Shown: positions 4,319-31,043 of the stretch, piece after piece
Numbering within the stretch: position 1 is the stretch's first letter
Layout of the letters: each line of letters begins with the position of its first letter
Assembly: GCF_000829315.1 (NCBI RefSeq)
Contig: NZ_AP013028.1
Span: 450,001 to 482,000 of the forward strand
Length of the DNA stretch: 32,000 bases
Direction of reading: 5' to 3'
Origin: Wolbachia endosymbiont of Cimex lectularius
GTDB taxonomy: Bacteria; Pseudomonadota; Alphaproteobacteria; Rickettsiales; Anaplasmataceae
Notes under the pieces: model-generated
What the model saw: the letters and a program-made list of their open reading frames with translations, nothing else
Told to the model about the DNA's origin: nothing
Database searches by the model: none
Program-made: the position numbers and the translations under genes

Positions 4319-5734
4319 ATGGGAAAATGTAATAACACATGGTTCAATAAGCATGATTGTACAAACGATGGCACCTGCGGTCAATCTATACAAAATTATA
4401 AGGTTGGTAATTCTAATATTTCTTTCTATGACAGCTATGGAAAAACGATTGCACAGATACCTAAGTTGCCTAACGGAAACTCTATTACATACTATAATAA
4501 TTTATACAAAACTGCAGAATCAAAAAATTTTGCTGGTAGGTCAGCAGAATATGTAGGAATTCAGGATGTATTGCCTAATCAATTTAATTTCAAATATGGA
4601 AAGTTAAATTGCGTGATACATTATGATAATGTATCACAAGAGGAGCAAGAGCAAATAAAGCTTGATATTCAAAACGCTTATGAGGCATACAAAGCGAAGT
4701 TTTGTATTGCCGGTACCCAAGGTACTGTGCACACCTATATTTTTAATAATGAAAATGACTATAAGAAATACGGCACTAAGGTTCCTGGGTTTTCAAAGTA
4801 TCAAGATATGGTTAATAAGTCTGCTGGAATGACAGATGGAAGAAGCGTATCGCTCTATAAAAATGCTTATATGGATAACGTTTTAGCACATGAAATGGGT
4901 CACGTGTTCCAATTTAGGTTTTCCATGGCAGAAGTAGAAGCATTAGACCGTGTAAATTCTCAGTTAATGGCAAATGCCATTGGGCTAGAAGTAGAAGAAA
5001 AAAATTATAAAGCTATTTGTGAACAAAAAGACATAAATGAATACAAAAAGTTTAATGACAAAATTTTTGAGTTTGAGTACAAAGGCACCCTGTATCAAGT
5101 ATGGGGTAAGGTACGTCAAAATCTTTCAGGAGAGGAGAAAGTTCAATTTATTAAAGACATTAAGAGCTCTCATGAATCGCTTACTAGTGAGTGTTATAGA
5201 TTAGGTGGTGAAAGTGCAACTTTAAAAGTTCACATTTATGTTGGTGAAAATAAAGACATAGATAAAGTGTTTTTTTATAACCCCAACAAGAACTTATCTA
5301 AATGGTTGGATAAGACACTTATAAGCAGAAGTAACCCTGAAGAAGAGGTAAATACAGAGAAAAGTCAAGAGGAACAAGAGTCAAATGAGGTGAATTCAAG
5401 ATCAGGGAAAGAAAAATCCTGGAGTCAGGAAGAGTTGAATAAAGTAGAACATACAGGCTCAAAGGAAGAACAAAGTAAGATAGAAGAGAGCCAGCAAGGC
5501 ACTCAGCAACCCAGTGACTCGTCACCTAATGTTATTTTTCAAGCGCTTGACTACATTATTGGTTCCATTTCATCATTCTTTTCATGGTTATTTGGTTCTA
5601 AAGAGAAAGAACAACCTGCTCAACAATCTGACGATAGCTTTTCTTTATTTGAGTTTGATGCGAGCGGGCTAGATCACGATATTGGAGATCACTTGTCAGA
5701 CAATCATTATCACTCATCTGATGAGCTAATATAA
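4319..5734 (+). CDS. Large HEXXH zinc-metalloprotease-like protein with an acidic/Ser-rich C-terminal tail
   Basis: The 471 aa ORF is preceded by GTGAGG. The HEMGH motif is at aa 191-195 (nt 4889-4903). Its context, VHTYIFNNENDYKKYG...GMTDGRSVSLY...LAHEMGHVFQFRF, resembles the M9 collagenase catalytic core layout. There is no obvious signal peptide. The C-terminal ~130 aa are low-complexity E/S/Q-rich plus a hydrophobic segment, VIFQALDYIIGSISSFFSWLFG. Confidence 0.6.
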   Translation: MGKCNNTWFNKHDCTNDGTCGQSIQNYKVGNSNISFYDSYGKTIAQIPKLPNGNSITYYNNLYKTAESKNFAGRSAEYVGIQDVLPNQFNFKYGKLNCVIHYDNVSQEEQEQIKLDIQNAYEAYKAKFCIAGTQGTVHTYIFNNENDYKKYGTKVPGFSKYQDMVNKSAGMTDGRSVSLYKNAYMDNVLAHEMGHVFQFRFSMAEVEALDRVNSQLMANAIGLEVEEKNYKAICEQKDINEYKKFNDKIFEFEYKGTLYQVWGKVRQNLSGEEKVQFIKDIKSSHESLTSECYRLGGESATLKVHIYVGENKDIDKVFFYNPNKNLSKWLDKTLISRSNPEEEVNTEKSQEEQESNEVNSRSGKEKSWSQEELNKVEHTGSKEEQSKIEESQQGTQQPSDSSPNVIFQALDYIIGSISSFFSWLFGSKEKEQPAQQSDDSFSLFEFDASGLDHDIGDHLSDNHYHSSDELI

Positions 5735-6021
5735 CAACTCCCCTCCCCTTTTTAGTTATGTCTATAGCCTTTCAAATATGGGGAGGTAGTTATTTAAACA
5801 ATTAAATGAAAAATTAAGTAAATCATCCTGAAATTCCTGCTTTTTGTTGCGCAAAGAGATGACTTTTATTTCATTTGCATTATGGTTTAGGAGAAACGCA
5901 GATGAGCATAGCAAAATACCTGAAGTACCTCAGCCGCTAACACATAGCGGAATGACGGTTTTTCGAATCTTTAGGGTGTCATCCAAGTAGCCCCTTCTCC
6001 TGTCGTTCCAGTGCCTTCTTC

Positions 6022-6291
6022 TTGTCATTCCAGCGCGTGACGCACATCTGTACGAACATTGCAATTAGCAGGTAATTTGCGTAACAGATGGTGTCATCCC
6101 AGTGCTCCGACACTGGGATCCAACCTTTCCATAATCATTAAAACGCCGTATTTTAACATAAAACAGCTACTTTTATACTCACCAACTTAATAAAATTCCT
6201 GGATGCCAGTGTCAGCTACTTGCATAACACCCTAGTGGTAGGCTCAAATCACAATGTTCGTACAGATGTGCGTCACGCGCTGGAATGACAA
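6022..6291. repeat. Perfect 40-bp inverted repeat flanking 190 bp, inside copy A
   Basis: 6022-6061 (TTGTCATTCCAGCGCGTGACGCACATCTGTACGAACATTG) is the exact reverse complement of 6252-6291. Confidence 0.9.
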
Positions 6292-6747
6292 CATTTGTTG
6301 TAAAAACAAATGTTCGTTCATGAATTGCAACTAGCTATAAATATTAAGAAATTTATCAAATGAGAAAAAAAGCAAAAGAAACCCTGGTCGGTGGCTAATT
6401 ATTTATATGTACCTCAAATATCGGCGTTTTTATTCTCAGCGCTACGATTCAGCTACTTTTAAATGCAAATAACCAAAACTGTAAACGTTAAGAAATTTAC
6501 TAAACAGGAAAAAGGGCAAAAAAACTCTAGGGCAGCTAGTATTCAAATTCTCCCTTGTCTATTTGACGTTCTACACTATCTTAAACGACTTATAAGCGCG
6601 TTTCAGCTTGTATAGATAAAAACCCGAAGTTTTAAAAAGACGTGAGGTGCACATAGTGCAAAAATTTAAACATGAGACGCCAAATACCCTAAGTTTTTTG
6701 TCATTAACCTGCACAGATTGCGAAGATAAATAAATAGCTTCAGTATC

Positions 6748-6776
6748 ATTATAAGGGGGTTGGCGAAGGTTGTCAA
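6748..6776 (-). promoter_or_regulatory. Perfect consensus sigma70 promoter at the edge of repeat copy A
   Basis: The minus strand reads TTGACA (6776..6771), exactly 17 nt (ACCTTCGCCAACCCCCT), then TATAAT (6753..6748). It is directed into the repeat and away from the adjacent gene 6803-9706. Confidence 0.6.
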
Positions 6777-6802
6777 GTTTCTATGAATGGCGTGTTATAT
6801 GC

Positions 6803-9706
6803 CTAGCGCGCTGCCATTTTTGTCATAGCACGGTCAAACACTCCCAATAACCTCTTAAATAGGCTTGGAGTTAGCAAAGAGATAGGATTAACAGATACGT
6901 TACTGTTTTTATCATCCCCATTTGCTTTGTAGTCTATTGAAATAATCCCCCTACTTTTCCCACCAGTGAGAAGTTTTCCGATTATAGGGATTTTTGACAA
7001 AGATTTGTTAATTGAGTATGCTGGTATTACTTGTCCTTCGACCTGGAACTTATAATCCTTGATATCAAGCCTACCTCTAGTGCTAATGCCCAGTTCCGCC
7101 CCTTCAAGCCAAGATTCTTCAATTTCAACAGTGCCGTCTTTATATGAAAAAGGTGCATTACACTTATAAAAGTATACACCTTCGTTCTTTATAGCATTTA
7201 CAATACCAGGCAGTGAAGACATCGATAGTAAAGTAGTAAGCAGTGAAGCATCTTTGATATAGAAATTGCTGATAGATAACATGCCGTAATGTTCCCCATT
7301 TTCTCTCTGAGAAGAGAGATAAAAAGATAATTTGCCGTTTTTCACTGATTTACCAATGCCTAAAGAACGCAAAAGCATACCTGAATTATCCGCATATATT
7401 TCGAGCCCTATTCCACTGTATTCCGCTGATATTTTGCTGTTGTCTTCCAAAAACTGTCCTGCAAATTTACTTCCATTACAATCACCTTTAGTGCAGGTTA
7501 CATGTAGCTTGGCGTTTTTGACAACAATGCCTTCTTTCATCATTAAATTGTCAACATTCATACTTACTTCTATGTCATTGTTGAATCCACCACTGTTTTT
7601 GCCAAGCAACCCTAAAATATCACTTAAATTAATTTTCTCACCATAAAGAGTTATGGCATTTTTTTCTTTGCCTAACTCAACTTCTACATTAAGGTCATTA
7701 TCCGGCAATTCAAATTTGCCAGAGCTCAAATACAAATTCCCATTCTCTACTTTTCCGCTAAATTTTATATCTAGGTCATTTCCTACAACGTCTAATTTGT
7801 CTATTAACAACTCACCTGCTCCTTTTAGCCTTGTAGAAAACGAAATTTTATTGTGGTCTTCAAAGCGATTCCTCCACCCTAAGTAGCTTGAACGTGACTC
7901 AAGCTCTGACAAATCTATATTACCACTAACATATCCCGTCTTATCTTGATTTATCACTGACTCTATACTCGTGTTGACGTAACCACCATCAAAATTAAGT
8001 ATTTGAGCAGGTAAATCCCCAGTTAAATTCCAGGCAAAACTTTCATTTTTGTTGCTACTTTTCAAGTCGAATAATAGTTGTGTATTATTCACCATACCAC
8101 TGCCATTTAAATCAATAAAGTCTCTGCCAAAATCAAGTTTAATATCATGCTTACTAAGACTTGCACCATAGACAACTAGATCGTCAATTTTGGAATGGAA
8201 ATTTGCTAAGAAGTCTACTTTTTTATCGTCGACATTCAGGTTAAAAATGCGAAAACTGAATACAGATTTTGCTATTCCACCAATCTTGTCTCTTGTAACC
8301 TGAATCATGTCATCCAGCTTAAATTTTATAGGCTCATATAACCCGTAAGCATCGCTTGTGGCCTTACCATTGATGACTAGAACTGATTCTTTCTTATCGA
8401 GAAAGTTCATTTCAATACTACCACCATCAATAGTGAAATTCTGAAATTTAGCGCTATTTACAGCAATTGTGAGGTTGTTATTTTTGAGAGTTAAATCACC
8501 GTTTAATTCTTTCACTTGCTCAAAATCTTCATCAAATCTGACACTGCAGTTTTCTATATCAGCAACAATTACAACGTCTGATAGATCATCATTAACTAAG
8601 CTATTAATTTTGCCGTTGAAACTTATGATTGTATTTACAATATCCCCATCGATATTATCACAATACCATTTTTTAAATCTATTCTTCACTATACCATCTG
8701 GTACATAAGTACATAAATCCTTCGCGGCAAACTTACTAATGTTGACCCTAAGCAGAGTATGATTTGTACTAAAGTTCATTTTACCAATCAAAGAAAGGTA
8801 CATACCATTTAACTTAAAATGAAAGTTTTTTACGCTGATGATTTCATCACTATATGTCAAATTCACATTTACATTAGTCAAGGCTAAGTTTTTACTCGAG
8901 TGATTCTCTGTATTTAATACGTATATGTTTCCATCTACAACTTCATCCTTTCCATTAATTCTCATTGAAAAGTTTCCTTTGAATCCTATTTCTTTGTCCA
9001 AATTGTAACTTTTAACTAGTGTGGAAAACTCGTTAAATAGCTCCAACTTTAGGTTATAGAATGTTCCATACAAATTTAGTAAATTATTGCGGTTTTTTAT
9101 CGTAATGGATAAATCATCTAGAAATCCTTTACCTTCTTTTGTATGGACACGGATATCCAAAACATTGAAATCTTCCCCCTTCCCTGCATATACTTTATCA
9201 ATGAAAAATTCACCTTCCGTGCTTTTATTGATAGCAATGTTAGTAATTTCAATTTTTGAACTTGCATTTAGGTCAAAAAAGAATTTCCTCACTGCTTTCA
9301 AAAAATTTTTCGAATAAAAATCAACTGCTTTGAAGTCATCTTTTTCCTGGTTGATACACACATGCACATTATCAGCCGAGACTTGAGAAAAATTTATACT
9401 GGTTTTTAGCAAAGAACTGAACTTAAAATGCACAAAAAGGTTAGGAACTTTTATAGTAAAGCCAGGATTCACTATTTTTAAATCTGTAATGACTAGATAT
9501 GGATCTGTGCCATCTCTTTGCCAAATAACTGAAGTACTCTCCATATTGACATTTGAGTTGGCAAACGTTTTCGATATCTTATTCTTTAAGTAAAAATTGA
9601 TATAACTAATATTAACTCCCAAGGGACTTTTATCTTTGAAAAAGACAAAGAAGCAGAGCATAAATAATAAAACTATAGAAAATAATATAGTGATTTTTTT
9701 AAGCAT
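6803..9706 (-). CDS. AsmA/YhdP/TamB-like large envelope protein
   Basis: The 967 aa ORF has an N-terminal TM helix (ITILFSIVLLFMLCFFVFF) and a long Asn/Lys-rich, beta-prone body. The C-terminal block, ...QVEGQVIPAYSINKSLSKIPIIGKLLTGGKSRGIISIDYKANGDDKNSNVSVNPISLLTP, is typical of the AsmA-family C-terminus. Its start overlaps the rnhA stop by 8 nt. Confidence 0.6.
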   Translation of the reverse strand: MLKKITILFSIVLLFMLCFFVFFKDKSPLGVNISYINFYLKNKISKTFANSNVNMESTSVIWQRDGTDPYLVITDLKIVNPGFTIKVPNLFVHFKFSSLLKTSINFSQVSADNVHVCINQEKDDFKAVDFYSKNFLKAVRKFFFDLNASSKIEITNIAINKSTEGEFFIDKVYAGKGEDFNVLDIRVHTKEGKGFLDDLSITIKNRNNLLNLYGTFYNLKLELFNEFSTLVKSYNLDKEIGFKGNFSMRINGKDEVVDGNIYVLNTENHSSKNLALTNVNVNLTYSDEIISVKNFHFKLNGMYLSLIGKMNFSTNHTLLRVNISKFAAKDLCTYVPDGIVKNRFKKWYCDNIDGDIVNTIISFNGKINSLVNDDLSDVVIVADIENCSVRFDEDFEQVKELNGDLTLKNNNLTIAVNSAKFQNFTIDGGSIEMNFLDKKESVLVINGKATSDAYGLYEPIKFKLDDMIQVTRDKIGGIAKSVFSFRIFNLNVDDKKVDFLANFHSKIDDLVVYGASLSKHDIKLDFGRDFIDLNGSGMVNNTQLLFDLKSSNKNESFAWNLTGDLPAQILNFDGGYVNTSIESVINQDKTGYVSGNIDLSELESRSSYLGWRNRFEDHNKISFSTRLKGAGELLIDKLDVVGNDLDIKFSGKVENGNLYLSSGKFELPDNDLNVEVELGKEKNAITLYGEKINLSDILGLLGKNSGGFNNDIEVSMNVDNLMMKEGIVVKNAKLHVTCTKGDCNGSKFAGQFLEDNSKISAEYSGIGLEIYADNSGMLLRSLGIGKSVKNGKLSFYLSSQRENGEHYGMLSISNFYIKDASLLTTLLSMSSLPGIVNAIKNEGVYFYKCNAPFSYKDGTVEIEESWLEGAELGISTRGRLDIKDYKFQVEGQVIPAYSINKSLSKIPIIGKLLTGGKSRGIISIDYKANGDDKNSNVSVNPISLLTPSLFKRLLGVFDRAMTKMAAR

Positions 9707-13546: not shown

Positions 13547-13761
13547 ATTTGTTTGCTGTAAAACTAAGTGACATACCGTATAATAGTATATAGAAACTTA
13601 CTATGCAAACAGAGATTAGCAATGATTAATAATTTTTTAGCGTTTAATAGGTATAATAATATAGTACTAATTTAGGGGAAAAAGCATTTACATGAATCTA
13701 TTTTAAGTTAAAATATTATAATATTTTTAGTTAAGTATTTACTTTAAGTAAATTCTATAAT

Positions 13762-13837
13762 AAGTTTAATAGTGTCTGTTACTGCTAATAACCCTCTAGC
13801 CTCACATCTAAAAGCAGTAACAGACACTATTAAACTT
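13762..13837. repeat. Perfect 24-bp inverted repeat with a 28-nt spacer
   Basis: AAGTTTAATAGTGTCTGTTACTGC (13762-13785) is the exact reverse complement of 13814-13837. It lies about 220-290 bp upstream of the coxB start. Confidence 0.9.
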
Positions 13838-14224
13838 TATGACAAATTTACTCATCTGTAAGTATAAAGGCCTGCCTCATATTTTATATAATACACTATA
13901 CTTTATTAACTAACTTTTAATGTCTGTAGCAGCATACATGATTTACGTATTATAGAAAATAATCATAAAGTATACTACTTGTAACCAACATAAAATTTTT
14001 TATTCAGCACCATTTCTATTATTTTCGGGTGTTAAAGCACTTGAAACTTGAAGCAAATGCACCTCGGCTTTCCGCAAGGAATAACTGAGTTATTAAGCTC
14101 TGTAAACAAAATTTTTAGAGAAGTCAATAAAATCTTATAACAAATTTCAATGGTAAATTAAAAAGTTTCCCTACGATGAGAGATTTAGCGAATTTATTAT
14201 GTATCTTGTTTGATAACGAAAGTT

Positions 14225-14690
14225 GGTGTAACCTTTATGCTTAAGAAATTTACCAAATGGAGAAAAAAGCAAAAGAAACCCCGTGGTAGCTAGCTATTTA
14301 CTTTTGTGTCGAAATGTTGGCGTTTCTTTATCCTAAACGCTTAATAAGTGCGACTTAGCTGCTTTTTAATGCAACTAACCTTAGCCATAAACATTTAAGA
14401 AATTCACTAAGCAGAAAAAAAGCAAAAGAAACCCCGAGTAGCTAGTTATTCACTATCTATCTTATGATATTGGCGTTTTTGATGTCTTAAACGACTTATA
14501 AGCGCGTTTGAGCTTGTATAGGTAAAAAAACAGAAGTTTTAAAAAGACATGCAGTGCACATAGTGCGAAAAATTAAACATGAGACGCGAAATATGTTAAG
14601 TTTTTTTGTCATTTAATCTGCACAGACTGAAGATAAATAATAGCTTCAACTCTATAATAACAGGGTTAGCGAAGGTTGTCAAGTAGTTTT
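14225..14690 (-). repeat. Composite intergenic repeat, copy B (lacks the palindrome/intron-site half)
   Basis: Contains the promoter block, the unique block and two ~154-bp tandem sub-repeats (14243-14396, 14397-~14545), all homologous to copy A. Confidence 0.8.
14654..14682 (-). promoter_or_regulatory. Near-consensus sigma70 promoter of repeat copy B
   Basis: The minus strand reads TTGACA (14682..14677), 17 nt, then TATTAT (14659..14654). It points toward the coxB operon. Confidence 0.5.
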
Positions 14691-17201: not shown

Positions 17202-17250
17202 TGATACCTTATTTGTGGACAAGCCATAAATTTTACTTTAAAATAAATAT

Positions 17251-17300: not shown

Positions 17301-17651
17301 ATGAGCTCTACAATAAAAAAGTTTTTTAATGTTTTATGTTTGGTGTTGTTTTTATCAGGCAATGCAGATGCCTCTAGCGCTGGTAGTGCTGGTATCAATG
17401 ACACAACTGCCCAAGTAATATGTAATATTATTGGTTATGTCTGGGGGATAGGTGGTCCACTCATGACAGTAGTAATAATTGGTGCATCCTTGCTTGCAAT
17501 ATTTGGCAGAATGCCTTGGCCAGCTCTCTTTGCTTTAGGTATGTTTTGTGGTGTATTTTTTGGCGCTAAGACGATCATAATGAACATTATACCCAATGTA
17601 AGCAATGAAGTCAAAAAAATGTTGGACCAGTGTGGACAGAATGGCCCTTAA
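17301..17651 (+). CDS. virB2: TrbC/VirB2-family T4SS pilin paralog 1
   Basis: 116 aa with a signal peptide and two hydrophobic helices. The core is IGGPLMTVVIIGASLLAIFGRMPWPALFALGMFCGVFFGAKTI, the VirB2 layout. Confidence 0.75.
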   Translation: MSSTIKKFFNVLCLVLFLSGNADASSAGSAGINDTTAQVICNIIGYVWGIGGPLMTVVIIGASLLAIFGRMPWPALFALGMFCGVFFGAKTIIMNIIPNVSNEVKKMLDQCGQNGP

Positions 17652-22580: not shown

Positions 22581-22931
22581 TTATTTCTTTTCTTCCGCTC
22601 CACACTTGTCCATAATGGAAGTATTTCCAGTACCACCTACACCACCGATTACTTTTGTCACAATAGCTTTTGCACCAAAAAACACAACGCAAAATACACC
22701 GAGTGCAAAAAGTGCCGGCCAGGGCATTTTACCGAATATTGCAAGCAAAGCCGCACCTATTATTACTATAGTCATAAGAGGTCCACCTATTCCCCAAACG
22801 TATTTAATAATATTGCATATTACTTTGGTAGTTGCATCAAGATCACTATCAGCAGCACTGCTCATATGAGAAAAGGAAATAAATAATATTATAAGAAAAA
22901 CACTAAAAACTTTCCTAATTGTAGGGTTCAT
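22581..22931 (-). CDS. virB2: TrbC/VirB2-family T4SS pilin paralog 2
   Basis: 116 aa with core IGGPLMTIVIIGAALLAIFGKMPWPALFALGVFCVVFFGAKAI, nearly identical to paralog 1. Confidence 0.75.
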   Translation of the reverse strand: MNPTIRKVFSVFLIILFISFSHMSSAADSDLDATTKVICNIIKYVWGIGGPLMTIVIIGAALLAIFGKMPWPALFALGVFCVVFFGAKAIVTKVIGGVGGTGNTSIMDKCGAEEKK

Positions 22932-24531: not shown

Positions 24532-24861
24532 ATGAAAAATTTTCTTCTACTTATAGCTTTAATCCTCTCTTTTGCATTTGATGCAAATGCTGCTAAGCAG
24601 AGTAAAACTCAAGGTGATGAAACATCAGAAGTGATATGCAGCATAGTAAAATATACCCAAAGCATAGGTGGGCCGATGATCACAGTAGTAATAATAGGTG
24701 CAGCTCTGCTTGCAATATTCGGAAGAATGCCTTGGCCTGCTCTTTTTGCACTCGGAGCATTTACTGCTGTGTTTTTTGGTGCTCCTATAGTTGTTTCAAA
24801 AATAATGCCAAACGCTGGTGTGGCTTGTAAAGATGGTACAGTACAGAAAGTGACTCCGTAA
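24532..24861 (+). CDS. virB2: TrbC/VirB2-family T4SS pilin paralog 3
   Basis: 109 aa with a signal peptide and core IGGPMITVVIIGAALLAIFGRMPWPALFALGAFTAVFFGAPIV. Confidence 0.75.
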   Translation: MKNFLLLIALILSFAFDANAAKQSKTQGDETSEVICSIVKYTQSIGGPMITVVIIGAALLAIFGRMPWPALFALGAFTAVFFGAPIVVSKIMPNAGVACKDGTVQKVTP

Positions 24862-24974
24862 AATAGAAATAATTGGAAGCATTGTGATTTGTAAAAATGG
24901 TAAGGTTGAATTGCTCTGCTAGTTAAACATGGCAAGGCGGAAGATGCCTCTTTCAATGGGTGCCACAATTTCGG

Positions 24975-25018
24975 AAAAACACCAAGTAATGGTGCTTCTT
25001 AAAAAAGCACCATTACTT
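24975..25018 (-). terminator. Strong hairpin, intrinsic-terminator-like on the minus strand
   Basis: A perfect 14-bp stem, AAGTAATGGTGCTT (24984-24997) pairing with AAGCACCATTACTT (25005-25018), has a 7-nt loop. On the minus strand it is followed by GGTGTTTTT. No T-run follows it on the plus strand. Confidence 0.5.
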
Positions 25019-25146
25019 CACAACTATTGTGAGCAATCTCTGCCAAGAGAGTGTTACCCTAGTAACCCATTTCTTGTCATCCCAGCGCGCGACGCTGGGA
25101 TCTCATTTCACCTTATGACGGTGCCATAAAAGTAGCCCCCTTCCTG

Positions 25147-25781
25147 GTCGAGTAGGCCGGTGGAACTTCCCCACCAGCCCCTCACAGAACTGTGCATGAA
25201 CCTCTCGATTCACACAGCTCTTGTCATTTTTAGCCTTTACATCAAAGACCTACCTTAATTATTTGCTCCTCCCATTTCGGTTGACAAATAACTAAAACCC
25301 AAATGACTTAGTCCCTTCGCTCCATCTCCATTACAGAGACTTCTTCACTACTACGAACTAATCCGCCCCTGTTTTCCGCATCGATACTCTCATCCTCGAA
25401 GTTTAGCTTCTTGGATTTCTCCCTTATTATCGAAACGACAGGTTCCCGCAGTTCTACACAATAGCCCAAAATAGATTCGCGCCACCTCTATGCCGGACGC
25501 CACTACCCAATAAACAAGTTTCCGGTAGATTTATCCCAGGTTAGGATGAAACCCCTGGTTTTGACGTCATCTAAGGCCTTTCGACACTTCTTCAGTGGTT
25601 CATTTTCATTCCCCTCTCTATTTCACACATGACGCATAATTGCGCCTTTTCCATAACGCTCACTACCTTGGCTCTTTACCAAAGCAGCTTATGGTTGTTT
25701 GAAGCCTGCTCTTGTAAACCGGCTCCGAGGGGCCCACCCTCATCTATTGTGCAGCTTCAGCTTACCGCTTCTACGGCACAC
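25147..25781 (-). mobile_element. ORF-less group II intron (ribozyme only, ~635 nt)
   Basis: The minus strand starts with GTGTG (25781..25777). Domain V at 25220..25187, GAGCUGUGUGAAUCGAGAGGUUCAUGCACAGUUC, folds as a 9-bp stem with the AGC triad, a 5-bp stem, a GAGA tetraloop and a 2-nt AU bulge. Domain VI is a hairpin with a bulged A (25153) 7 nt from a ...CGAC 3' end. No coherent ORF is present and the segment is visibly more GC-rich than its flanks. The boundaries match the intron-less paralogous site at 6002/6003. Confidence 0.8.
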
Positions 25782-26267
25782 TCATTCCAGTGCCTCCTCT
25801 TTTGTCATTCCAGTGCTCGACACTAGAATCCAGGAAAGTTTGCTTGTTCACAAGCAAACTGATTCGGTGATCATGGAAAGTAGCTAATCTTGTGCTAAAA
25901 ACGTTCTTGGTGAGGTTGCATGGGAAGCTGGATTCCAGCGTCACGCGCTGGAATGACACCACTTGCTGTAAAAATAAATGTTCGTTCATGAATTGCTTTA
26001 ATATTTAAGAAATTTACTAAATAGAGAAAAAGGCAAAGAAATCCCGAGTGGCGAGTTTTGACTCTATAATACTTTAAATTGGCGCTATAATAATTTGCTG
26101 ACGCTTAGTTCAAGCGCGATTTGGCTGAATGTAGAAAAAATGAAAAAGACATGCAGCCGCTATAATTTGATACAATCCGCCAAAAAATACCCTGAGTTTT
26201 TTACTGAATTTTGTCATTGAGCCTGCAGATCAAAAACAAGTTTTGATTTAGAAACACCCTTGCTGTT

Positions 26268-26296
26268 ATGGTAACGGGTTTGGCGAAAGTTGTCAA
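26268..26296 (-). promoter_or_regulatory. Degenerate copy of the repeat-borne promoter (copy C)
   Basis: The minus strand reads TTGACA (26296..26291), 17 nt, then TACCAT (26273..26268). It is in the same orientation as the intron. Confidence 0.35.
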
Positions 26297-26407
26297 GTAG
26301 TTTTTTCGCATATACCAAAAGCTGTTTTTTATGCGAGAAGTCCACTTTCAGAAATTTGTTTATTTAGATAATATTTAGTCTATACTTTATTTTGACCAAA
26401 AAAACCT

Positions 26408-27151
26408 ATGTATAAAACTTTAATCACGTGTTTTGTTCTTCTGATTTGCTCTTTTGCGCAATCTTATGCGAATGATGATGTTCATCTTGAAAAAAGTGAA
26501 ACTGAGCTATATGAGGAGGTAGTTAAGCTTTTTGACCAGAAAAAATATAAACAAGCCATCAGAGCATTTCAAAAAATTGAAGATTTGTACCCCTTCTCTT
26601 ATTGGGCGATGAAAGCAAAATTATTATCTGGTATTTCTCACTACAATATGGGCAACTACAGCAGTGCTGCAAGTGATATGGACGATTACACACAGATTTA
26701 TTCAAATGGTGAAGACTTACCGTATGTGTACTACCTAAGGGTATTATCTCATTATATGCAAATCAATAAAGTACAACTCGGGCAACAAACGGCATATAAA
26801 GCTTTAGAGCTAGCTGCTGAGTACATCAATCTCTTCCCAGGCAGTGAACATACAGAAGAGATAAAGGAAAAAGTAAAGCTAGTTACTGAACATATATTAG
26901 CGAAAGAATATTCTATCGGTAGGTTCTACATAAGGCGTGGTGAATATCTAGCAGCAATTAAGCGTTTTCAAAATGTAATAAGCAGCAAGGATTCTAGCTA
27001 CTTTCCTAGATCTGTTAACTATCTAATAGCAGCTCATTCAGCCCTTGGCCTTGATCTGGAAGCTCAGCAGTATGAAAGTATGCTAGCAGGAACCCTCAAA
27101 AGGAAAGACGAAGTTCCATGTGAGAACAGCAAACTTGAAAATTCGCTTTAG
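26408..27151 (+). CDS. bamD: Outer membrane protein assembly factor BamD (YfiO/ComL-like TPR lipoprotein)
   Basis: 247 aa with a signal peptide and a BamD-like TPR pattern (YEEVVKLFDQKKYKQAIRAFQKIEDLYPFSYWAMKAKL...IGRFYIRRGEYLAAIKRFQNV). Confidence 0.8.
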   Translation: MYKTLITCFVLLICSFAQSYANDDVHLEKSETELYEEVVKLFDQKKYKQAIRAFQKIEDLYPFSYWAMKAKLLSGISHYNMGNYSSAASDMDDYTQIYSNGEDLPYVYYLRVLSHYMQINKVQLGQQTAYKALELAAEYINLFPGSEHTEEIKEKVKLVTEHILAKEYSIGRFYIRRGEYLAAIKRFQNVISSKDSSYFPRSVNYLIAAHSALGLDLEAQQYESMLAGTLKRKDEVPCENSKLENSL

Positions 27152-27198
27152 TTTTCTCTATGCTTTGATATATAATTTAAGTTTGTAACTATTTGAAT

Positions 27199-27948
27199 AT
27201 GGCTGGTCATTCACAATTTTCAAATATAAAACACCGGAAAGGCGCTCAGGATGCAAAGCGCTCTCAAAAATTTACGAAGCTCATTAGAGAAATAACAGTT
27301 GCTGCAAAGCAAGGGCTGCCTGATCCTGAACTCAATCCACGTCTTCGTTCTGCTATATTTGCTGCACGTAAGGAAAATTTGCCAAAAGATAAAATAGAAG
27401 CAGCAATAAAAAACGCAACTGGTAGTGTTGCAGGAGAAAATTATGAGGAAATACAATATGAGGGCTATGGACCTTCTGGCACTGCACTTATTGTTCATGC
27501 TCTAACGAATAACCGCAACCGAACTGCTTCTGAGGTGCGTTATATATTCTCTCGCAAGGGTGGAAATTCGGGAGAAACAGGAAGTGTTAGCTATCTTTTT
27601 GATCATGTAGGCTTAATCGTCTATAAAGCAGAGGGCGCAAACTTTGAAGATTTGTTTGATTACGGAATCGAATTAGAAGTATTGAATGTTGAGGAAAATA
27701 ACAAAGAAGAATTGTATGTTATAACCTGTGAAGTAAAGAATTTTGGTAAAGTGCGTGATGCTTTTTATGCAAAATTTGGGGAGCCAGAACTTGCTCGTCT
27801 TTCATGGCAACCAAAGGATCTGATTGAAGTTAGCGATAAGGAATTAATTGATAAATTATCTGCATTGGTCGAAGAGCTCGAAGATAATGATGATGTACAA
27901 TACGTTGAAGGTAATTTTACTTTTGCTGGTGATAATTTTGCCGCTTAA
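27199..27948 (+). CDS. YebC/PmpR-family transcriptional regulator
   Basis: MAGHSQFSNIKHRKGAQDAKRSQKFTKLIREITVAAK... is the canonical YebC N-terminus. The ORF track starts two codons earlier, at TTG 27193. Confidence 0.9.
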   Translation: MAGHSQFSNIKHRKGAQDAKRSQKFTKLIREITVAAKQGLPDPELNPRLRSAIFAARKENLPKDKIEAAIKNATGSVAGENYEEIQYEGYGPSGTALIVHALTNNRNRTASEVRYIFSRKGGNSGETGSVSYLFDHVGLIVYKAEGANFEDLFDYGIELEVLNVEENNKEELYVITCEVKNFGKVRDAFYAKFGEPELARLSWQPKDLIEVSDKELIDKLSALVEELEDNDDVQYVEGNFTFAGDNFAA

Positions 27949-27951
27949 GTT

Positions 27952-28941
27952 ATGAAACTAATCGTATTCATACTACTTTTTATTTTACCGCTGCACACCA
28001 TTGAGGCATCCGCAGATCTCTCAGTATCATTCCAGCACGGAATCAGGAAAAAAAAAGTCATAGATTCAAGTAGTCAAGCTGTTCTGATAAAAGAAAGCAA
28101 CGTAGGAAACTTAGTACATGATAAAAGGTTGTTATTCATATCTAGTAACATAAAATCTTCCTTTTTCGCCACAGGAATTGAACAAGGTTTGGCGCAAAAT
28201 ACAGTAATGAGATTAATCGACATATATAAAGATTTTGGTATAGACTTTAAAAAAGATATCATGCCAGAGAGTAAATTGGAGGTTCTTTTTGAGGGATTGC
28301 CTAATAATCAGAAGACTGAAGAAAAAATTTTATACACCTCACTGACAACAAACAAAAAAGCTACTCGTCTATATCATTATAAGTCACAAAACGGTCAAGA
28401 GGGATATTTTGATAAAGAGGGAATAAGCCTAAGAGGTAGCAAATCTTTTACAAATCCTTTGAGTGGAGATTATCGTATATCTTCGAAATTTGGGAATAGA
28501 AAGCATCCTATTTGCGGTAAGGTTGTTTTTCACAAAGGAGTAGACTATGCGGCTAAATTTGGTACTCCTATATACGCTGCTGCAGAAGGTGTAATAGAAT
28601 ATATAGGAAATAACGGAGGATATGGTAAGTACATCAAAATAAAACATAAAAATGGTTATTCAACCTGCTACGCACATATGAGTAAATTTAGTAGTGATGT
28701 GAAATTAGGCTCCAAAGTAAAGCAGGGACAGGTTATCGCTTATGTTGGTAGCACTGGTGTTGCCACAGGACCCCATTTACATTACGAGATTATATATAAC
28801 GGCAAACACGTTGATCCGCTTACAATAGCGCATAAAAACAAAGTGATGCTACTTGATCACGGATTAAGAGAGTTTAAACTATTTGTAAATAAGATAGATA
28901 AAACGGTCAACAGGGAGAGTTTAGGTGAAAAAGAAGTTTAA
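27952..28941 (+). CDS. M23-family (LytM-type) peptidoglycan endopeptidase
   Basis: 329 aa with a signal peptide and the motifs HKGVDYAA...GTPIYAAAEG...GYGKYIKIKH...STGVATGPHLHYEI. Confidence 0.9.
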   Translation: MKLIVFILLFILPLHTIEASADLSVSFQHGIRKKKVIDSSSQAVLIKESNVGNLVHDKRLLFISSNIKSSFFATGIEQGLAQNTVMRLIDIYKDFGIDFKKDIMPESKLEVLFEGLPNNQKTEEKILYTSLTTNKKATRLYHYKSQNGQEGYFDKEGISLRGSKSFTNPLSGDYRISSKFGNRKHPICGKVVFHKGVDYAAKFGTPIYAAAEGVIEYIGNNGGYGKYIKIKHKNGYSTCYAHMSKFSSDVKLGSKVKQGQVIAYVGSTGVATGPHLHYEIIYNGKHVDPLTIAHKNKVMLLDHGLREFKLFVNKIDKTVNRESLGEKEV

Positions 28942-29794
28942 AGACAATATTGATAAGAATACGATAAATGATAGAAATTTAAGTCAACTCCGGGTTTTTC
29001 CCGTACTAATAGTGCTAGGATTAATTTTATCGGTACTTTTTGTAGCATATGACAGTACAATTGCACTTGGAATTGCTGCTATTTCAGTGTTGTTTTTTTC
29101 TCAAGGGTTTTTCATCAATAACCCCAATGAAGCGAGGGTGGTAGAATTTCTTGGTCGTTATATTGGAACTTATTTTAAACCTGGGATGTTTATTACGCTG
29201 CCATTTTCAACAAAACATGCTGTTTCTCTGAAATTTCAGAATATCAACACAGAAAAAATTAAAGTAAATGATGCAAATGGAAGCCCTATAGAGATTTCAG
29301 TAGTGATTGTTTGGAGGGTAAGCAGCCCCGCAAAGGCATATTATAATGTGAATAATTATTATGAGTTTGTTTTCGTGCAAAGTGACTCAGTAATTAGAGA
29401 ATTGGCGAGCAATTACCCGTACGACAGCGAAAGCGATGAGGAATCTTTACGTAAAAATTCTGATAAAATTTCAGGTGAATTGCGTTCAATGTTACAACAA
29501 AGACTGGATATTGCGGGAATTGAAGTTACAGAAGCGAGAATATCGCATTTAGCGTATTCTTCTGAGATTGCACAAGCAATGCTGAGGCGTCAACAAGCAC
29601 ATGCTATTACCTCTGCAAGAAAGCATATAGTGCAAAATGCAATAGGAATTATCGAGGAGGTAATAGCCCATTTTGAAAAGAATAAAAGCATACAATTGGA
29701 TGGAAAGCAAAAGGTTCAACTGATAAATAACCTGCTAGTTGCCCTTATTTCCGAACAAGATGCACAACCAACAATTAGCTTAGATAATAATTAG
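28925..29794 (+). CDS. SPFH/band-7 domain membrane protein
   Basis: 289 aa with an N-terminal TM pair followed by an SPFH-like domain (EARVVEFLGRYIGTYFKPGMFITLPF...VNDANGSPIEISVVIVWRV...AQAMLRRQQA). The GTG start overlaps the M23 gene by 17 nt. Confidence 0.75.
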   Translation: MKKKFKDNIDKNTINDRNLSQLRVFPVLIVLGLILSVLFVAYDSTIALGIAAISVLFFSQGFFINNPNEARVVEFLGRYIGTYFKPGMFITLPFSTKHAVSLKFQNINTEKIKVNDANGSPIEISVVIVWRVSSPAKAYYNVNNYYEFVFVQSDSVIRELASNYPYDSESDEESLRKNSDKISGELRSMLQQRLDIAGIEVTEARISHLAYSSEIAQAMLRRQQAHAITSARKHIVQNAIGIIEEVIAHFEKNKSIQLDGKQKVQLINNLLVALISEQDAQPTISLDNN

Positions 29795-29814
29795 TACAGA
29801 AGCTCAACGAAAAG

Positions 29815-30455
29815 TTTACTTGACAACCTTCGCCGTCACCCTTATAATGATACTGGAGTTATTTGTTTAACTTCCCAATCTGTGCAGGTTAAAATGACAA
29901 GAAAACTTGTATTTGGCGTACTATGTGCACTGCATGTCTTTTTAAAAACTTCGGGTTTTTACCCATACAAGCTGAAACGCGCTTATAAGTCGTTTAAGAC
30001 ATCACCCAACGCCGGATTTTAAAATAGAGAGTGGAATAACTAGCTACCTCGGGGTTTTATTGTCCTTTTTTTCTGCCTGGTAAATTTCTTAAATATTATA
30101 GCTTAGACTAGTTGCGTTTAAGGCATAAAAACGCCAATACTAAAAATAAATACCGACCAGGGTTTCTTTTGCTTTTTTCTCTGTTTAGTAAATTTTTTAA
30201 ATATTTATAGCTAATTGCAATTTATGAACGAATATTTGTTTTTACAACAAATGGTGTCATTCCAGCGCGTGACGCTGGAATCCAGGAACTTTATTAGGCT
30301 AGTGAGCATAAAAGTTATGTTAAAATGCACCATTTTTATGGAAAACTGGATCCCAGTGTCGGAGCACTTGGATGCACCCTCTTGGCAGCACAATGTTTGT
30401 ACGCTCTTCCTGAGTATTCCCATCTGCGTTTCTCCTCAAAATTTTTTACCATAAA
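29815..30455 (+). repeat. Composite intergenic repeat, copy D (sense strand is plus)
   Basis: Contains the promoter block, the unique block, two shortened sub-repeats (ending ~30092 and ~30200), hairpins at 30259-30281 and 30350-30374, and a far-end block CATCTGCGTTTCTCCT (30421-30436). Confidence 0.8.
29820..29848 (+). promoter_or_regulatory. Perfect consensus sigma70 promoter at the edge of repeat copy D
   Basis: TTGACA (29820-29825), exactly 17 nt (ACCTTCGCCGTCACCCT), then TATAAT (29843-29848). It begins 26 nt after the stop of the SPFH gene. Confidence 0.6.
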
Positions 30456-30464
30456 TTAATTATG

Positions 30465-31043
30465 CTAGAGATCTAATGCTAATTTAAAAGGTGTCTTATT
30501 ATCATTGTTTCTAGCATTAATATCAGCTCCTTCTTTTATGAGAAGCTCAATTAGATCTAAATTACCTTCCTTAGCAGCATAGTGTAGTAATGTATTACCG
30601 CTATTACCCTTTGCTACAGCAAGAAAAGTTACCACCTCTCCTTGTGCAATCTCGAAAGGTGCCTTGTTTTTATTGTTTCTAGCTCTAATATTAGCTCCTT
30701 TACTTATAAGTAGTTCAGCTACATCCTCTGCATCAAAGAAAGCAGCTGTGTGTAATGGCGTCCAGTCAATATTGTCCCGAGCATCAACATCAGCACCATT
30801 GTCTACAAGGAATTCAGCTACATCTTTTGCATTAGAGATAGCAGCCGCATGCAGCGGTGTCAGGTCTTCATTGTCTTTAGTATTAACATCAACATCTTCT
30901 TTTACAAGAAGCCTAGCTAGATATAAATTACCTTCTTGAACAGCGTAGTACAGCAATGTATTACCGCTGCTATCCTTTGCTGCAGCAAGAATTCTTGCAA
31001 TTTTGTCATCATATGTTTTAATATCAGCAGTGTGCTTTTTCAT
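30465..31043 (-). CDS. Ankyrin repeat protein
   Basis: 192 aa with four or five canonical ANK repeats (GNTLLYYAVQEGNLYLARLLVKEDVDVNTKD, LTPLHAAAISNAKDVAEFLVDNGADVDARD, WTPLHTAAFFDAEDVAELLISKGANIRARN, GNTLLHYAAKEGNLDLIELLIKEGADINARN). The frame stays open upstream to ~31199, see findings. Confidence 0.9.
   Translation of the reverse strand: MKKHTADIKTYDDKIARILAAAKDSSGNTLLYYAVQEGNLYLARLLVKEDVDVNTKDNEDLTPLHAAAISNAKDVAEFLVDNGADVDARDNIDWTPLHTAAFFDAEDVAELLISKGANIRARNNKNKAPFEIAQGEVVTFLAVAKGNSGNTLLHYAAKEGNLDLIELLIKEGADINARNNDNKTPFKLALDL

Follow-up and report, generated by a model that had tools for sequence, protein, structure and literature searches.

A stretch of 32,000 nt from the Wolbachia endosymbiont of Cimex lectularius (assembly GCF_000829315.1, contig NZ_AP013028.1, positions 450,001 to 482,000 of the forward strand; referred to as the window, with coordinates counted from its first nucleotide) contains four intergenic regions of similar sequence. 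An earlier note, made from the letters of the DNA, had taken them for copies of a composite repeat with a promoter in its terminal block, and had judged this repeat to be neither a classical miniature inverted-repeat transposable element (MITE), nor an insertion sequence (IS), nor a gene. This raises the question of what kind of element it is and whether an RNA is made from it. The results presented below indicate that it is probably a Wolbachia-specific, dispersed, intergenic mosaic repeat, the head of which is an active and selected σ70 unit making a non-coding RNA, combined with variable tandem units and palindromes.

Four copies of a composite repeat in the window

The window contains exactly four copies of one composite intergenic repeat, which occupy about 10% of its length. 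The regions proposed at the outset (5870-6780, 14225-14690 and 24960-26300 on the minus strand, and 29815-30455 on the plus strand, hereafter copies A, B, C and D) were recovered with the proposed orientations as sites of a 14-mer, by repeat finding and as profile hits. The 14-mer TTGACAACYTTCGC occurs at 6776, 14682 and 26296 on the minus strand and at 29820 on the plus strand. A search allowing up to two mismatches detected just these four exact sites; the chance expectation was 0.36, and none of 100 shuffles reached four. Repeat finding recovered the blocks common to the copies, and a multiple alignment of the four showed collinear similarity across the first ∼520 columns. A profile hidden Markov model of the head of the repeat, built from copies in the window and in other genomes with copy C left out, gave four full-length hits in the window and no others:

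6778-6454, minus strand: copy A, E = 6e-88
14684-14360, minus strand: copy B, E = 8e-84
26298-25993, minus strand: copy C, E = 2.5e-22
29818-30121, plus strand: copy D, E = 5e-86

Since copy C was absent from the profile, it was detected independently. In pairwise comparisons of the first ∼290 nt, A and B were 81% identical, B and D 77%, and A and D 75%; the identity of C to the others was 62–65%. The similarity might have been confined to short palindromic hairpins, as the earlier note had allowed; this was not so, the best-conserved part being devoid of them.

Only the head, named here the P-unit, is common to all four copies. It is a constant segment of ∼290 nt made up of an A-tract, the hexamer TTGACA, a 17-nt spacer, a TATAAT-like box, three blocks (a, b and c) and a T-rich end. 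Behind it, the window copies have either no extra period or one, a hairpin block, and clusters of palindromes of two kinds, namely CGTC-type repetitive extragenic palindromic (REP) sequences and WsnRNA46-like units. The same ordered blocks had been expected in the four copies; this was fully the case for the head, while the order of the tail was kept in two to three copies only. The composite is therefore real and multi-copy, but it is a mosaic of separable modules rather than a single element, and most of these modules have already been described in Wolbachia.

Promoter and transcription start site of the P-unit

The proposal that the terminal block carries a promoter was confirmed by consensus hexamers in the four copies and by RNA 5′ ends determined by rapid amplification of cDNA ends (RACE) in paralogues from wMel. 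The promoters in the window are as follows (x/12, matches to the σ70 consensus hexamers):

6748..6778, minus strand: copy A promoter, -35 TTGACA at 6776-6771, 17-nt spacer, -10 TATAAT at 6753-6748, predicted start G 6741; 12/12
14654..14684, minus strand: copy B promoter, TTGACA at 14682-14677, TATTAT at 14659-14654 with a TG extension, predicted start 14647; 11/12
26268..26298, minus strand: copy C promoter, TTGACA at 26296-26291, TACCAT at 26273-26268; 10/12
29818..29848, plus strand: copy D promoter, TTGACA at 29820-29825, TATAAT at 29843-29848, predicted start 29855; 12/12

The head takes the form of an A-rich tract, CTACTTGACAA, a 17-nt spacer and TAtnAT, which is near the σ70 consensus. 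Circularity was avoided by measuring promoter conservation in copies retrieved through block c alone. CTACTTGACAA was kept in 34 of these 37 copies. Mean identity per position reached 0.98 in the -35 box and 0.88 in the -10 box, against 0.72 in the spacer and 0.69 in the upstream flank. Selection on promoter function predicts this pattern, in which the hexamers are conserved while the spacer diverges, and the promoter is therefore read as selected.

The 5′ RACE inserts reported for two wMel intergenic regions (IGRs), IGR-1047 and IGR-1021, have their 5′ ends directly after the RNA adaptor (PMC4349823, S1 File Table C). Both inserts (first bases GAAGCTATT and GAGGCATTC, respectively) aligned to the P-unit over their entire length. 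In both, the 5′ end is a G located 7 nt after the -10 box and homologous to G 6741 of copy A. Hexamers at a spacing of 17 nt, together with 5′ ends mapped in two wMel paralogues, show the head of the P-unit to be a self-contained σ70 transcription unit whose RNA starts at the G 7 nt after the -10 box. Primers for six more highly transcribed wMel intergenic regions (IGR-446, -1049, -292, -921, -1035 and -151) matched blocks of the family. The RACE clones and these primer matches imply that a large share of the wMel ‘highly transcribed intergenic regions’ are copies of the repeat.

The IGR-1047 RACE product continues beyond the T-run of the P-unit into the block that follows in tandem periods (V block), so the T-run does not end transcription. 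The IGR-1021 transcript reads into the downstream coding sequence, with which it is co-transcribed (PMC4349823). Scans of the transcribed strand within copies A, B and D detected no credible terminator. One terminator-like site was found at the far end of copy C:

24984..25018, minus strand: 16-bp hairpin followed by GGTGTTTTT

This hairpin sits between a virB2 paralogue and copy C, and looks like a terminator for the copy C transcript. It also lies just downstream of the convergent virB2 gene, on whose strand no T-run follows it.

Structure of the P-unit RNA

Single folds, RNAalifold (29 and 58 copies) and pair counting revealed no convincing conserved RNA fold for the P-unit. The single-copy fold z-scores were -0.96 for the sense and +0.38 for the antisense strand, and the RNAalifold consensus energy was -5.4 kcal/mol with 29 copies and -1.4 kcal/mol with 58. 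Rfam, searched at gathering and E-value thresholds, returned nothing for the P-unit. Pair counting for a candidate closing helix, UUUGGCGU/ACGCCAAA, and the block b and c hairpins gave 94% pairing with some two-sided changes, for a structure derived from the same related sequences. Block c itself is an imperfect palindrome of ∼34 nt, at about +130 to +165, that is nearly invariant across subfamilies otherwise 62–80% identical.

One subfamily, absent from the window (loci L003, L020, L039, L082 and similar), contains an insertion of 12–16 nt located ∼140–160 nt after the -35 box. This insertion gives rise to a good hairpin and T-run between blocks b and c (CCTAGACTTCTAGGTTTTT, -7 kcal/mol), which could be a subfamily-specific attenuator yielding an RNA of ∼100–125 nt. 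The notion that a hairpin plus T5 in this interval is a general terminator was discarded, since it is good in this one subfamily only and weak in the window copies.

These observations bear on the possibility that the P-unit is a multi-copy regulatory RNA gene family. Blocks b and c would then be trans-acting seed or protein-binding sequences, directed at Wolbachia mRNAs or at host targets as proposed for the WsnRNAs, and the promoter would be kept because the RNA is needed. The promoter boxes and internal blocks are indeed conserved far above the rest of the P-unit, the wMel paralogues belong to the intergenic regions with the strongest transcription, and the two-sided changes in the closing helix and the block-c hairpin provide weak hints of structure. 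However, 58 copies give no consensus structure, and the RNA has no discrete 3′-end, there being no internal terminator and the RACE product passing the T-run. Further, the transcript merges with the downstream gene in at least one wMel copy, and no target was identified. With its weak consensus fold and no internal terminator, the P-unit does not look like a structured small RNA gene, and it is unlikely that the family exists for the sake of a regulatory RNA.

Distribution of the family in Wolbachia

The repeat had been described as a four-copy family. This number holds for the window, but the family is dispersed, with tens of copies per genome across Wolbachia. The head motif was scanned for in one genome per species; among the matches listed, it was accompanied by the downstream blocks in wTis, wPaur, wMoz, isolate C61_2 and three ‘Rickettsiales’ metagenome-assembled genomes (MAGs). 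Matches in other phyla were rejected as chance occurrences since they lacked the -10 box and all downstream blocks. A block-c scan of metagenome contigs identified 51 contigs, many of them ending within the repeat, and no copy of block c was found in viral contigs. The fetched loci contain 97–101 P-units, of which one MAG alone accounts for at least 17 and wPaur for at least 14. Their common layout places the promoter at 0, block a at ∼60, b at ∼118, c at ∼172, the T-run at ∼255 and the following unit (R) at ∼280, after which come V-T-R periods. In a subset of copies, a further block (E) and REP hairpins follow the periods. No description of the P-unit family as such was found in the searchable literature, which is an incomplete set.

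In one ‘Rickettsiales’ MAG, a yhdP-like gene 96% identical to that of the window has a P-unit in the same place. Copies at the same yhdP-like position in different strains suggest old, stable insertions. A contig of the window's own strain (L124; GCA_902636555.1, contig CACPSN010000118.1, 3,896 bp), which corresponds to window positions ∼26300-29830, starts in copy C and ends in copy D. Short-read assemblies therefore break in the repeat, which is a systematic breakpoint; many other Wolbachia contigs end inside a P-unit, several of them exactly 143 nt in.

Upstream of the P-unit, the nearest gene was co-oriented with it in 30 cases and divergent in 21; downstream, the nearest gene was co-oriented in 12 cases and convergent in 14. 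Since the orientation of the neighbours is unbiased, the P-unit is not the dedicated promoter of a particular gene class.

A distribution of this kind could also be that of a non-autonomous transposable element, that is, a decayed IS end or an element resembling a MITE or a palindrome-associated transposable element (PATE), moved in trans by a Wolbachia transposase or by a REP-associated tyrosine transposase (RAYT); the promoter would be a former transposase promoter. Tens of dispersed intergenic copies, often directly after stop codons, would be expected of such an element, and the REP hairpins found with the P-unit, a kind of sequence moved by RAYT-type enzymes (PMC3733652), point the same way. 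So do an inverted E-like module (CATGAACATTGCAAT) found upstream of the head in some copies of other genomes, and the 45-nt inverted arms of a unit nested in copy A. However, the window copies have a fuzzy 5′ boundary and no terminal inverted repeats of the whole element, and no transposase-like ORF or remnant adjoins any P-unit in the window. The same-position copies mentioned above speak for stability, and the subfamily structure is common to different strains. A transposable element is thus an improbable explanation.

Several narrower candidates were rejected. A MITE would require an inverted repeat linking its two ends, and none of the four composites has one; the absence of terminal inverted repeats from the whole composite, asserted earlier, was thus verified, with inverted arms present only in the nested unit of copy A. 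An IS was discarded because copies A, B and D have no internal ORF of 80 aa or more; what remains of coding type is confined to a group II intron fragment without an ORF in copy C. Likeness to an IS110 bridge RNA, to dif, to parS and to CtrA boxes was judged by eye; the defining motifs or structure are lacking.

Coding potential of the P-unit

The statement that the repeat has no conserved ORF proved correct: no codon periodicity was observed, the frames were inconsistent and no protein homologue was found. The frame through block c (...YKLKRAYKSFKT...) is open for 15–50 codons in almost all copies, with an in-frame ATG in about two thirds. Its upstream part shifts between subfamilies due to frameshifting indels, and one third of the copies lack a start codon. 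Codon-position variability showed no third-position excess, the minor-allele counts summing to 108 at position 1, 140 at position 2 and 76 at position 3. A search with the 42-aa ORF of copy D detected no predicted protein sharing words with it in a collection of 5.8 billion sequences. A protein-coding gene was rejected on the basis of the frame analysis, codon-position variability and protein search, and the judgement that the repeat is not a classical MITE, IS or gene is supported.

The idea that this frame encodes a small basic peptide of 27–47 aa ending in ...YKLKRAYKSFKT..., possibly a type I toxin countered by a convergent antisense RNA similar to ncrwmel01, would be in keeping with the widely open frame, with the facing promoter-like site ∼600 nt downstream in copy A and with an interior antisense to the P-unit in copy D, but it is largely refuted, and very improbable, given the frameshifted N-terminal part, the copies without a start codon, the lack of third-position excess and of related proteins, the absence of a Shine-Dalgarno sequence before the ATG (as read from the sequence), a hydrophobic stretch too short for a membrane helix, and the lack of an antisense unit in copy B, with none identified in copy C.

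Block architecture of the individual copies

While the promoter block is present in all four copies, the other blocks are not evenly distributed. Those with GCACTATGTGCAC and GCGCTTATAAGTCGTTTAAG are found in copies A, B and D, and are diverged in C. The T-run plus R unit (AAATTTCTTAA) occurs twice in A, B and D (spacing of 143, 153 and 108 nt, respectively) and once in C. The ATGAACGAACATTTGTTTTTACAACAAATG block is present in A, C and D and missing from B; the hairpins of the tail are also found in A, C and D, and the far-end block GGAGAAACGCAGATG only in A and D. Copy A thus reads promoter, a, b, c, T-run, R, V, T-run, R, E, REP cluster, intron-end remnant and far-end block. Copy B follows the same order as far as the second R, where it ends. 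Copy C consists of promoter, diverged core, T-run, R, E, REP/WsnRNA46 unit, group II intron remnant, REP and terminator-like site. Copy D is like A, with a 108-nt period and without the intron remnant. The features of the head, periods and far ends are:

6797..6815, minus strand: module upstream of copy A, GGCAGCGCGCTAGGCATAT, overlapping the last codons of the yhdP-like ORF
6488..6741, minus strand: copy A P-unit core, a 6719-6704, b 6660-6647, c 6613-6579, T-run 6529-6506, AAATTTCTTAA 6501-6488 (block map, profile hit)
6344..6487, minus strand: copy A extra period, V 6473-6451, hairpin 6443-6420, T-run 6386-6363, second AAATTTCTTAA 6357-6344 (direct-repeat families D3/D4, block map, partial profile hit at positions 206-312)
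6292..6331, minus strand: copy A E block, TTGCAATTCATGAACGAACATTTGTTTTTACAACAAATG, with an 8-bp hairpin (direct repeat D10, block map)
5890..5906, minus strand: copy A far-end block, CTCATCTGCGTTTCTCC, the reverse complement of GGAGAAACGCAGATG (inverted repeat I24, block map)
14395..14647, minus strand: copy B P-unit core, a 14628-14613, b 14567-14554, c 14519-14484, T-run 14436-14413, R 14408-14395
14241..14394, minus strand: copy B extra period, V block beginning TGGCTAAGGTTAGTTGCAT (partial profile hit, E = 7e-17)
26005..26261, minus strand: copy C diverged P-unit core, T-run 26047-26023, R 26018-26005, no extra period
25960..25999, minus strand: copy C E block (direct repeat D10, 93%; block map)
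29855..30092, plus strand: copy D P-unit core, a 29877-29892, b 29917-29930, c 29965-30000, T-run 30050-30074, R 30079-30092
30093..30200, plus strand: copy D extra period, 108 nt, hairpin GCGTTTAAGGCATAAAAACGC (block map, profile)
30214..30253, plus strand: copy D E block (block map)
30419..30435, plus strand: copy D far-end block, CCCATCTGCGTTTCTCC (inverted repeat I24, block map)

Copy B lacks both the E block and the REP tail. Copy D has a deletion of ∼20 nt before block b, and the closest relative of the copy C core is a P-unit from another fetched locus (L084). The upstream module GGCAGCGCGCTAGGCATAT recurs just upstream of P-units in many other genomes; given its overlap with the final codons of the yhdP-like gene in copy A, the stop region of this gene appears to lie inside repeat-derived sequence. 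The far-end block GGAGAAACGCAGATG had no occurrence outside copies A and D among ∼180 other fetched loci, and was rejected as the start of a gene family because it is present only in these two copies and no conserved ORF follows it.

Modules of the tail

The tail is composed of modules already described in Wolbachia: CGTC-4 REPs, WsnRNA46-like units, ncrwmel01, periods resembling VNTR-141 (a variable-number tandem repeat, VNTR) and group II intron remnants. Hairpins of the TGTCATTCCAGCGCGTGACGCTGGAATGACA type occur as four direct and several inverted copies (families D9, I10 and I25), and a REP or bacterial interspersed mosaic element (BIME) organization is seen in the hairpin block only. CGTC-4 REPs have been reported in wMel and wRi, where they are clustered and form close dimers (PMC3733652); the assignment of the window hairpins to this class is based on that description, not on the consensus figure of the same paper. 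The following tail features were located:

6022..6291, no strand assigned: nested palindromic unit of copy A, 45-nt arms 6022-6066 and 6247-6291, 96% complementary (I10), with CGTC-type REPs around a WsnRNA46-like or ncrwmel01-like interior
6107..6135, plus strand: promoter-like site in that unit, CCGACA, 17 nt, CATAAT, 9/12, facing the P promoter
5987..6005, minus strand: 19-nt remnant of a group II intron 3′-end in copy A, CGACAGGAGAAGGGGCTAC, matching the copy C intron end 25151-25132
25792..25976, plus strand: WsnRNA46-family unit of copy C, REP arms 25959-25932 and 25832-25803; RF02625 at 67.8 bits against a gathering score of 65.3
25132..25741, minus strand: ORF-less group II intron remnant of copy C, ∼610 nt; RF01999 at 25741-25628 (108.9 bits), RF00029 at 25222-25147 (59.8 bits)
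30239..30394, no strand assigned: REP/WsnRNA46-like unit of copy D, with a ncrwmel01-like interior antisense to the P-unit; REP matches, RF02625 sub-threshold (37.9 bits, E = 1.5e-4)

In copy A, the match to WsnRNA46 (RF02625; 6074-6248) was also sub-threshold, at 43.6 bits and E = 4e-6, and the segment 6148-6205 matched the RACE insert of wMel IGR-60 (ncrwmel01). The predicted start of the plus-strand promoter-like site, at ∼6142, coincides with the ncrwmel01 5′ end in wMel. The intron remnants of copies A and C occupy an equivalent place in the repeat, both co-oriented with the P promoter. Given this matching position and orientation, the REP cluster may be an intron homing site transcribed from the P promoter.

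Tandem periods and their possible relation to VNTR-141

Each extra period duplicates part of the P-unit's own 3′ half (profile positions from ∼170-205 to ∼300-315). The periods are 108, 143 and 153 nt long, each with an internal hairpin. Tandem Repeats Finder made no call on these sub-repeats because they are diverged and amount to less than two full periods.

VNTR-141 has a 141-bp period with a 108-bp core and an internal hairpin, and the VNTR loci described are intergenic with periods of 105–141 bp (PMC3287509). The period of copy D (108 nt) has the length of this core. The VNTR-141 reverse primer corresponds to the V-block start of copy B (TGGCTAAGGTTAGTTGCAT), and of many other copies, barring one mismatch, one insertion and one deletion; no VNTR primer had an ungapped match within three mismatches in the window, and the reverse primer had no exact match in metagenome contigs. 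The VNTR-105 primers were found nowhere. An exact VNTR-141 forward primer is present in the 3′ end of ftsQ in wMel-like contigs, followed by the REP and intron-remnant modules typical of the tail. The retrieval of FtsQ homologues yielded only wMel-like contigs of 1.9 kb that end in the repeat. These data suggest that, judging from the sequence, VNTR-141 of wMel would be arranged as promoter and head, reverse primer site, array, tail and ftsQ end, in which case the head would lie outside the typing amplicon.

Neighbouring genes and other repeats in the window

The four regions are flanked by ordinary housekeeping genes (yhdP-like, the coxB operon, hlyD, dnaJ, bamD, a Band-7 gene and an ankyrin gene). 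Copy B points at coxB, and copy C at tRNA-Arg/dnaJ with the terminator-like site in between; copy A runs against a convergent ORF (4319-5734) and copy D against the ankyrin gene. The ORFs of the window include a member of the WD_0033/WD_0034 family, and Rfam also detected a tRNA-Arg(ACG). BamD of the window shares 96% identity with Wolbachia BamD and has identical counterparts in two Wolbachia assemblies; gene order around bamD is different in the wCin genome (L121) and in a Logan contig (L126).

Three paralogous VirB2/TrbC pilin ORFs of 109–116 aa are present at 17301-17651 (plus strand), 22581-22931 (minus strand) and 24532-24861 (plus strand); they match PF04956 with E-values of 2e-17 to 3e-14, share 78–83% nucleotide identity, and one abuts the far end of copy C. 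The AT-rich spacer of ∼680 nt between copy B and coxB contains a 40-nt inverted repeat (13747-13786 and 13813-13852, 85% complementary, 26 nt apart), which may be another small palindromic element. The ankyrin-repeat gene next to copy D (30465-31043) has three 136-nt units (30490-30991) of 60–78% identity, spaced by 168 and 198 nt, the periodicity expected of ankyrin repeats. Finally, a 229-nt direct repeat near the window start (289-517 and 902-1130, 80% identity), of whose 29-nt core a third, partial copy is found at 17208-17236, is unrelated to the mosaic repeat.

Proposed behaviour of the repeat

If the repeat is a transcribed mosaic, as considered probable above, the RNA initiated at the P promoter would traverse blocks a, b and c and the T-rich block as a non-coding RNA with no fixed structure. 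In copies B and C it would become a long 5′ leader of the next gene, while copies A and D would yield an antisense or convergent read-through RNA. The number of periods would change by slipped-strand mispairing and recombination. The REP cluster of the tail has attracted group II intron insertions, and the tail would serve as a landing zone for REPs and introns. The copies would persist, partly homogenized by recombination, in a genome under weak selection, and selection acting on transcription, or on the RNA or DNA sequence, would maintain the promoter and blocks b and c.

Several points weigh against this view. The evidence for expression comes from the wMel paralogues rather than from the window's strain, and no mechanism of spread was identified; terminal repeats are absent. 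The link to VNTR-141 comes from primers, period length and flanking modules rather than from the array sequence. The very high conservation of the internal blocks suggests a specific function beyond that proposed, and some two-sided changes in the UUUGGCGU/ACGCCAAA helix and the block-c hairpin leave a structured RNA as an unlikely possibility.

A bolder and rather unlikely proposal is that the P-unit is a dispersed, selected regulatory cassette, in which tens of near-consensus promoters and a constrained segment (block c) would be jointly controlled, or act jointly, in a bacterium with very few transcription factors. Such a cassette could operate as a multi-copy small RNA (sRNA)/antisense family setting the expression of neighbouring genes, or its copies could bind a single regulator or serve as an RNA polymerase sink. 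The VNTR period number would then tune the length or dose of the RNA, with a possible link to the reported correlation between VNTR size and the strength of cytoplasmic incompatibility.

Seen as a transcribed mosaic repeat, the family has practical consequences. Surveys of sRNAs or transcription start sites that discard multi-mapping reads would miss or split it, and candidate sRNAs from such regions would be paralogues rather than unique genes. The length of the VNTR marker probably alters that of an actual transcript. In a regulator-poor genome, expression could also be affected by tens of near-consensus promoters that fire into neighbouring genes or against them.

Comparison with known systems

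Most pieces of the repeat have been described before under other names; what is new is their unification and the promoter-bearing head. One architecture and one promoter join the VNTR-141-like periods, several ‘highly transcribed intergenic regions’, ncrwmel01, WsnRNA46 and the CGTC-4 REPs. The VNTR-141/VNTR-105 loci of Riegler et al. (PMC3287509) have tandem periods with a 108-bp core and hairpin that resemble those of the repeat, the core being as long as the period of copy D, and the VNTR-141 reverse primer nearly equals the V-block start. However, they were described as two single loci with copy-number variation, with no mention of a dispersed family, promoter or conserved head, and the window's strain has at most one extra period. 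Among the intergenic regions of Woolfit et al. 2015 (PMC4349823), IGR-1021 and IGR-1047 are paralogues of the P-unit that start where predicted; ncrwmel01 and WsnRNA46 (RF02625) correspond to the palindromic tail module. Those authors treated them as separate loci, describing no family, promoter consensus or block architecture; repetitiveness was mentioned only as an obstacle to primer design, and IGR-1021 and IGR-1047 were dropped as possible 5′-UTRs (PMC4349823).

In organization, the repeat resembles the modular intergenic mosaic repeats of the Neisseria intergenic mosaic element (NIME) or BOX type: it consists of ordered modules in variable number, is intergenic and multi-copy, and contains no ORF. 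This resemblance does not imply homology. NIMEs (RS units flanked by dRS3) have CGTC-type REP hairpins like those of the Wolbachia repeat, dRS3 being CGTC-1 and the Wolbachia type CGTC-4, both reported as clustered (PMC3733652). They are likewise intergenic arrays of several short modules in recurring order and sites of nested insertion and recombination, but have no sequence similarity to the Wolbachia repeat. NIMEs are not known to have a conserved near-consensus promoter heading a conserved transcribed unit of ∼250 nt.

The Correia elements of Neisseria are also dispersed intergenic repeats that bring promoter activity and alter the transcription of neighbouring genes. They are MITEs of ∼100–150 bp with terminal inverted repeats and a TA target duplication, neither of which the P-unit has. 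The pneumococcal BOX elements, boxA-(boxB)n-boxC, share with the repeat a constant head, variable tandem middle units and a tail, contain no ORF and can affect the expression of neighbouring genes. They are ∼100–300 nt long, form a stable stem-loop and are not known to carry a consensus -35/-10 promoter at the head, whereas the middle units of the Wolbachia repeat are duplicates of the 3′ half of its head. What sets the Wolbachia repeat apart from both NIMEs and BOX is its conserved near-consensus promoter and the sequence-constrained core transcribed from it.

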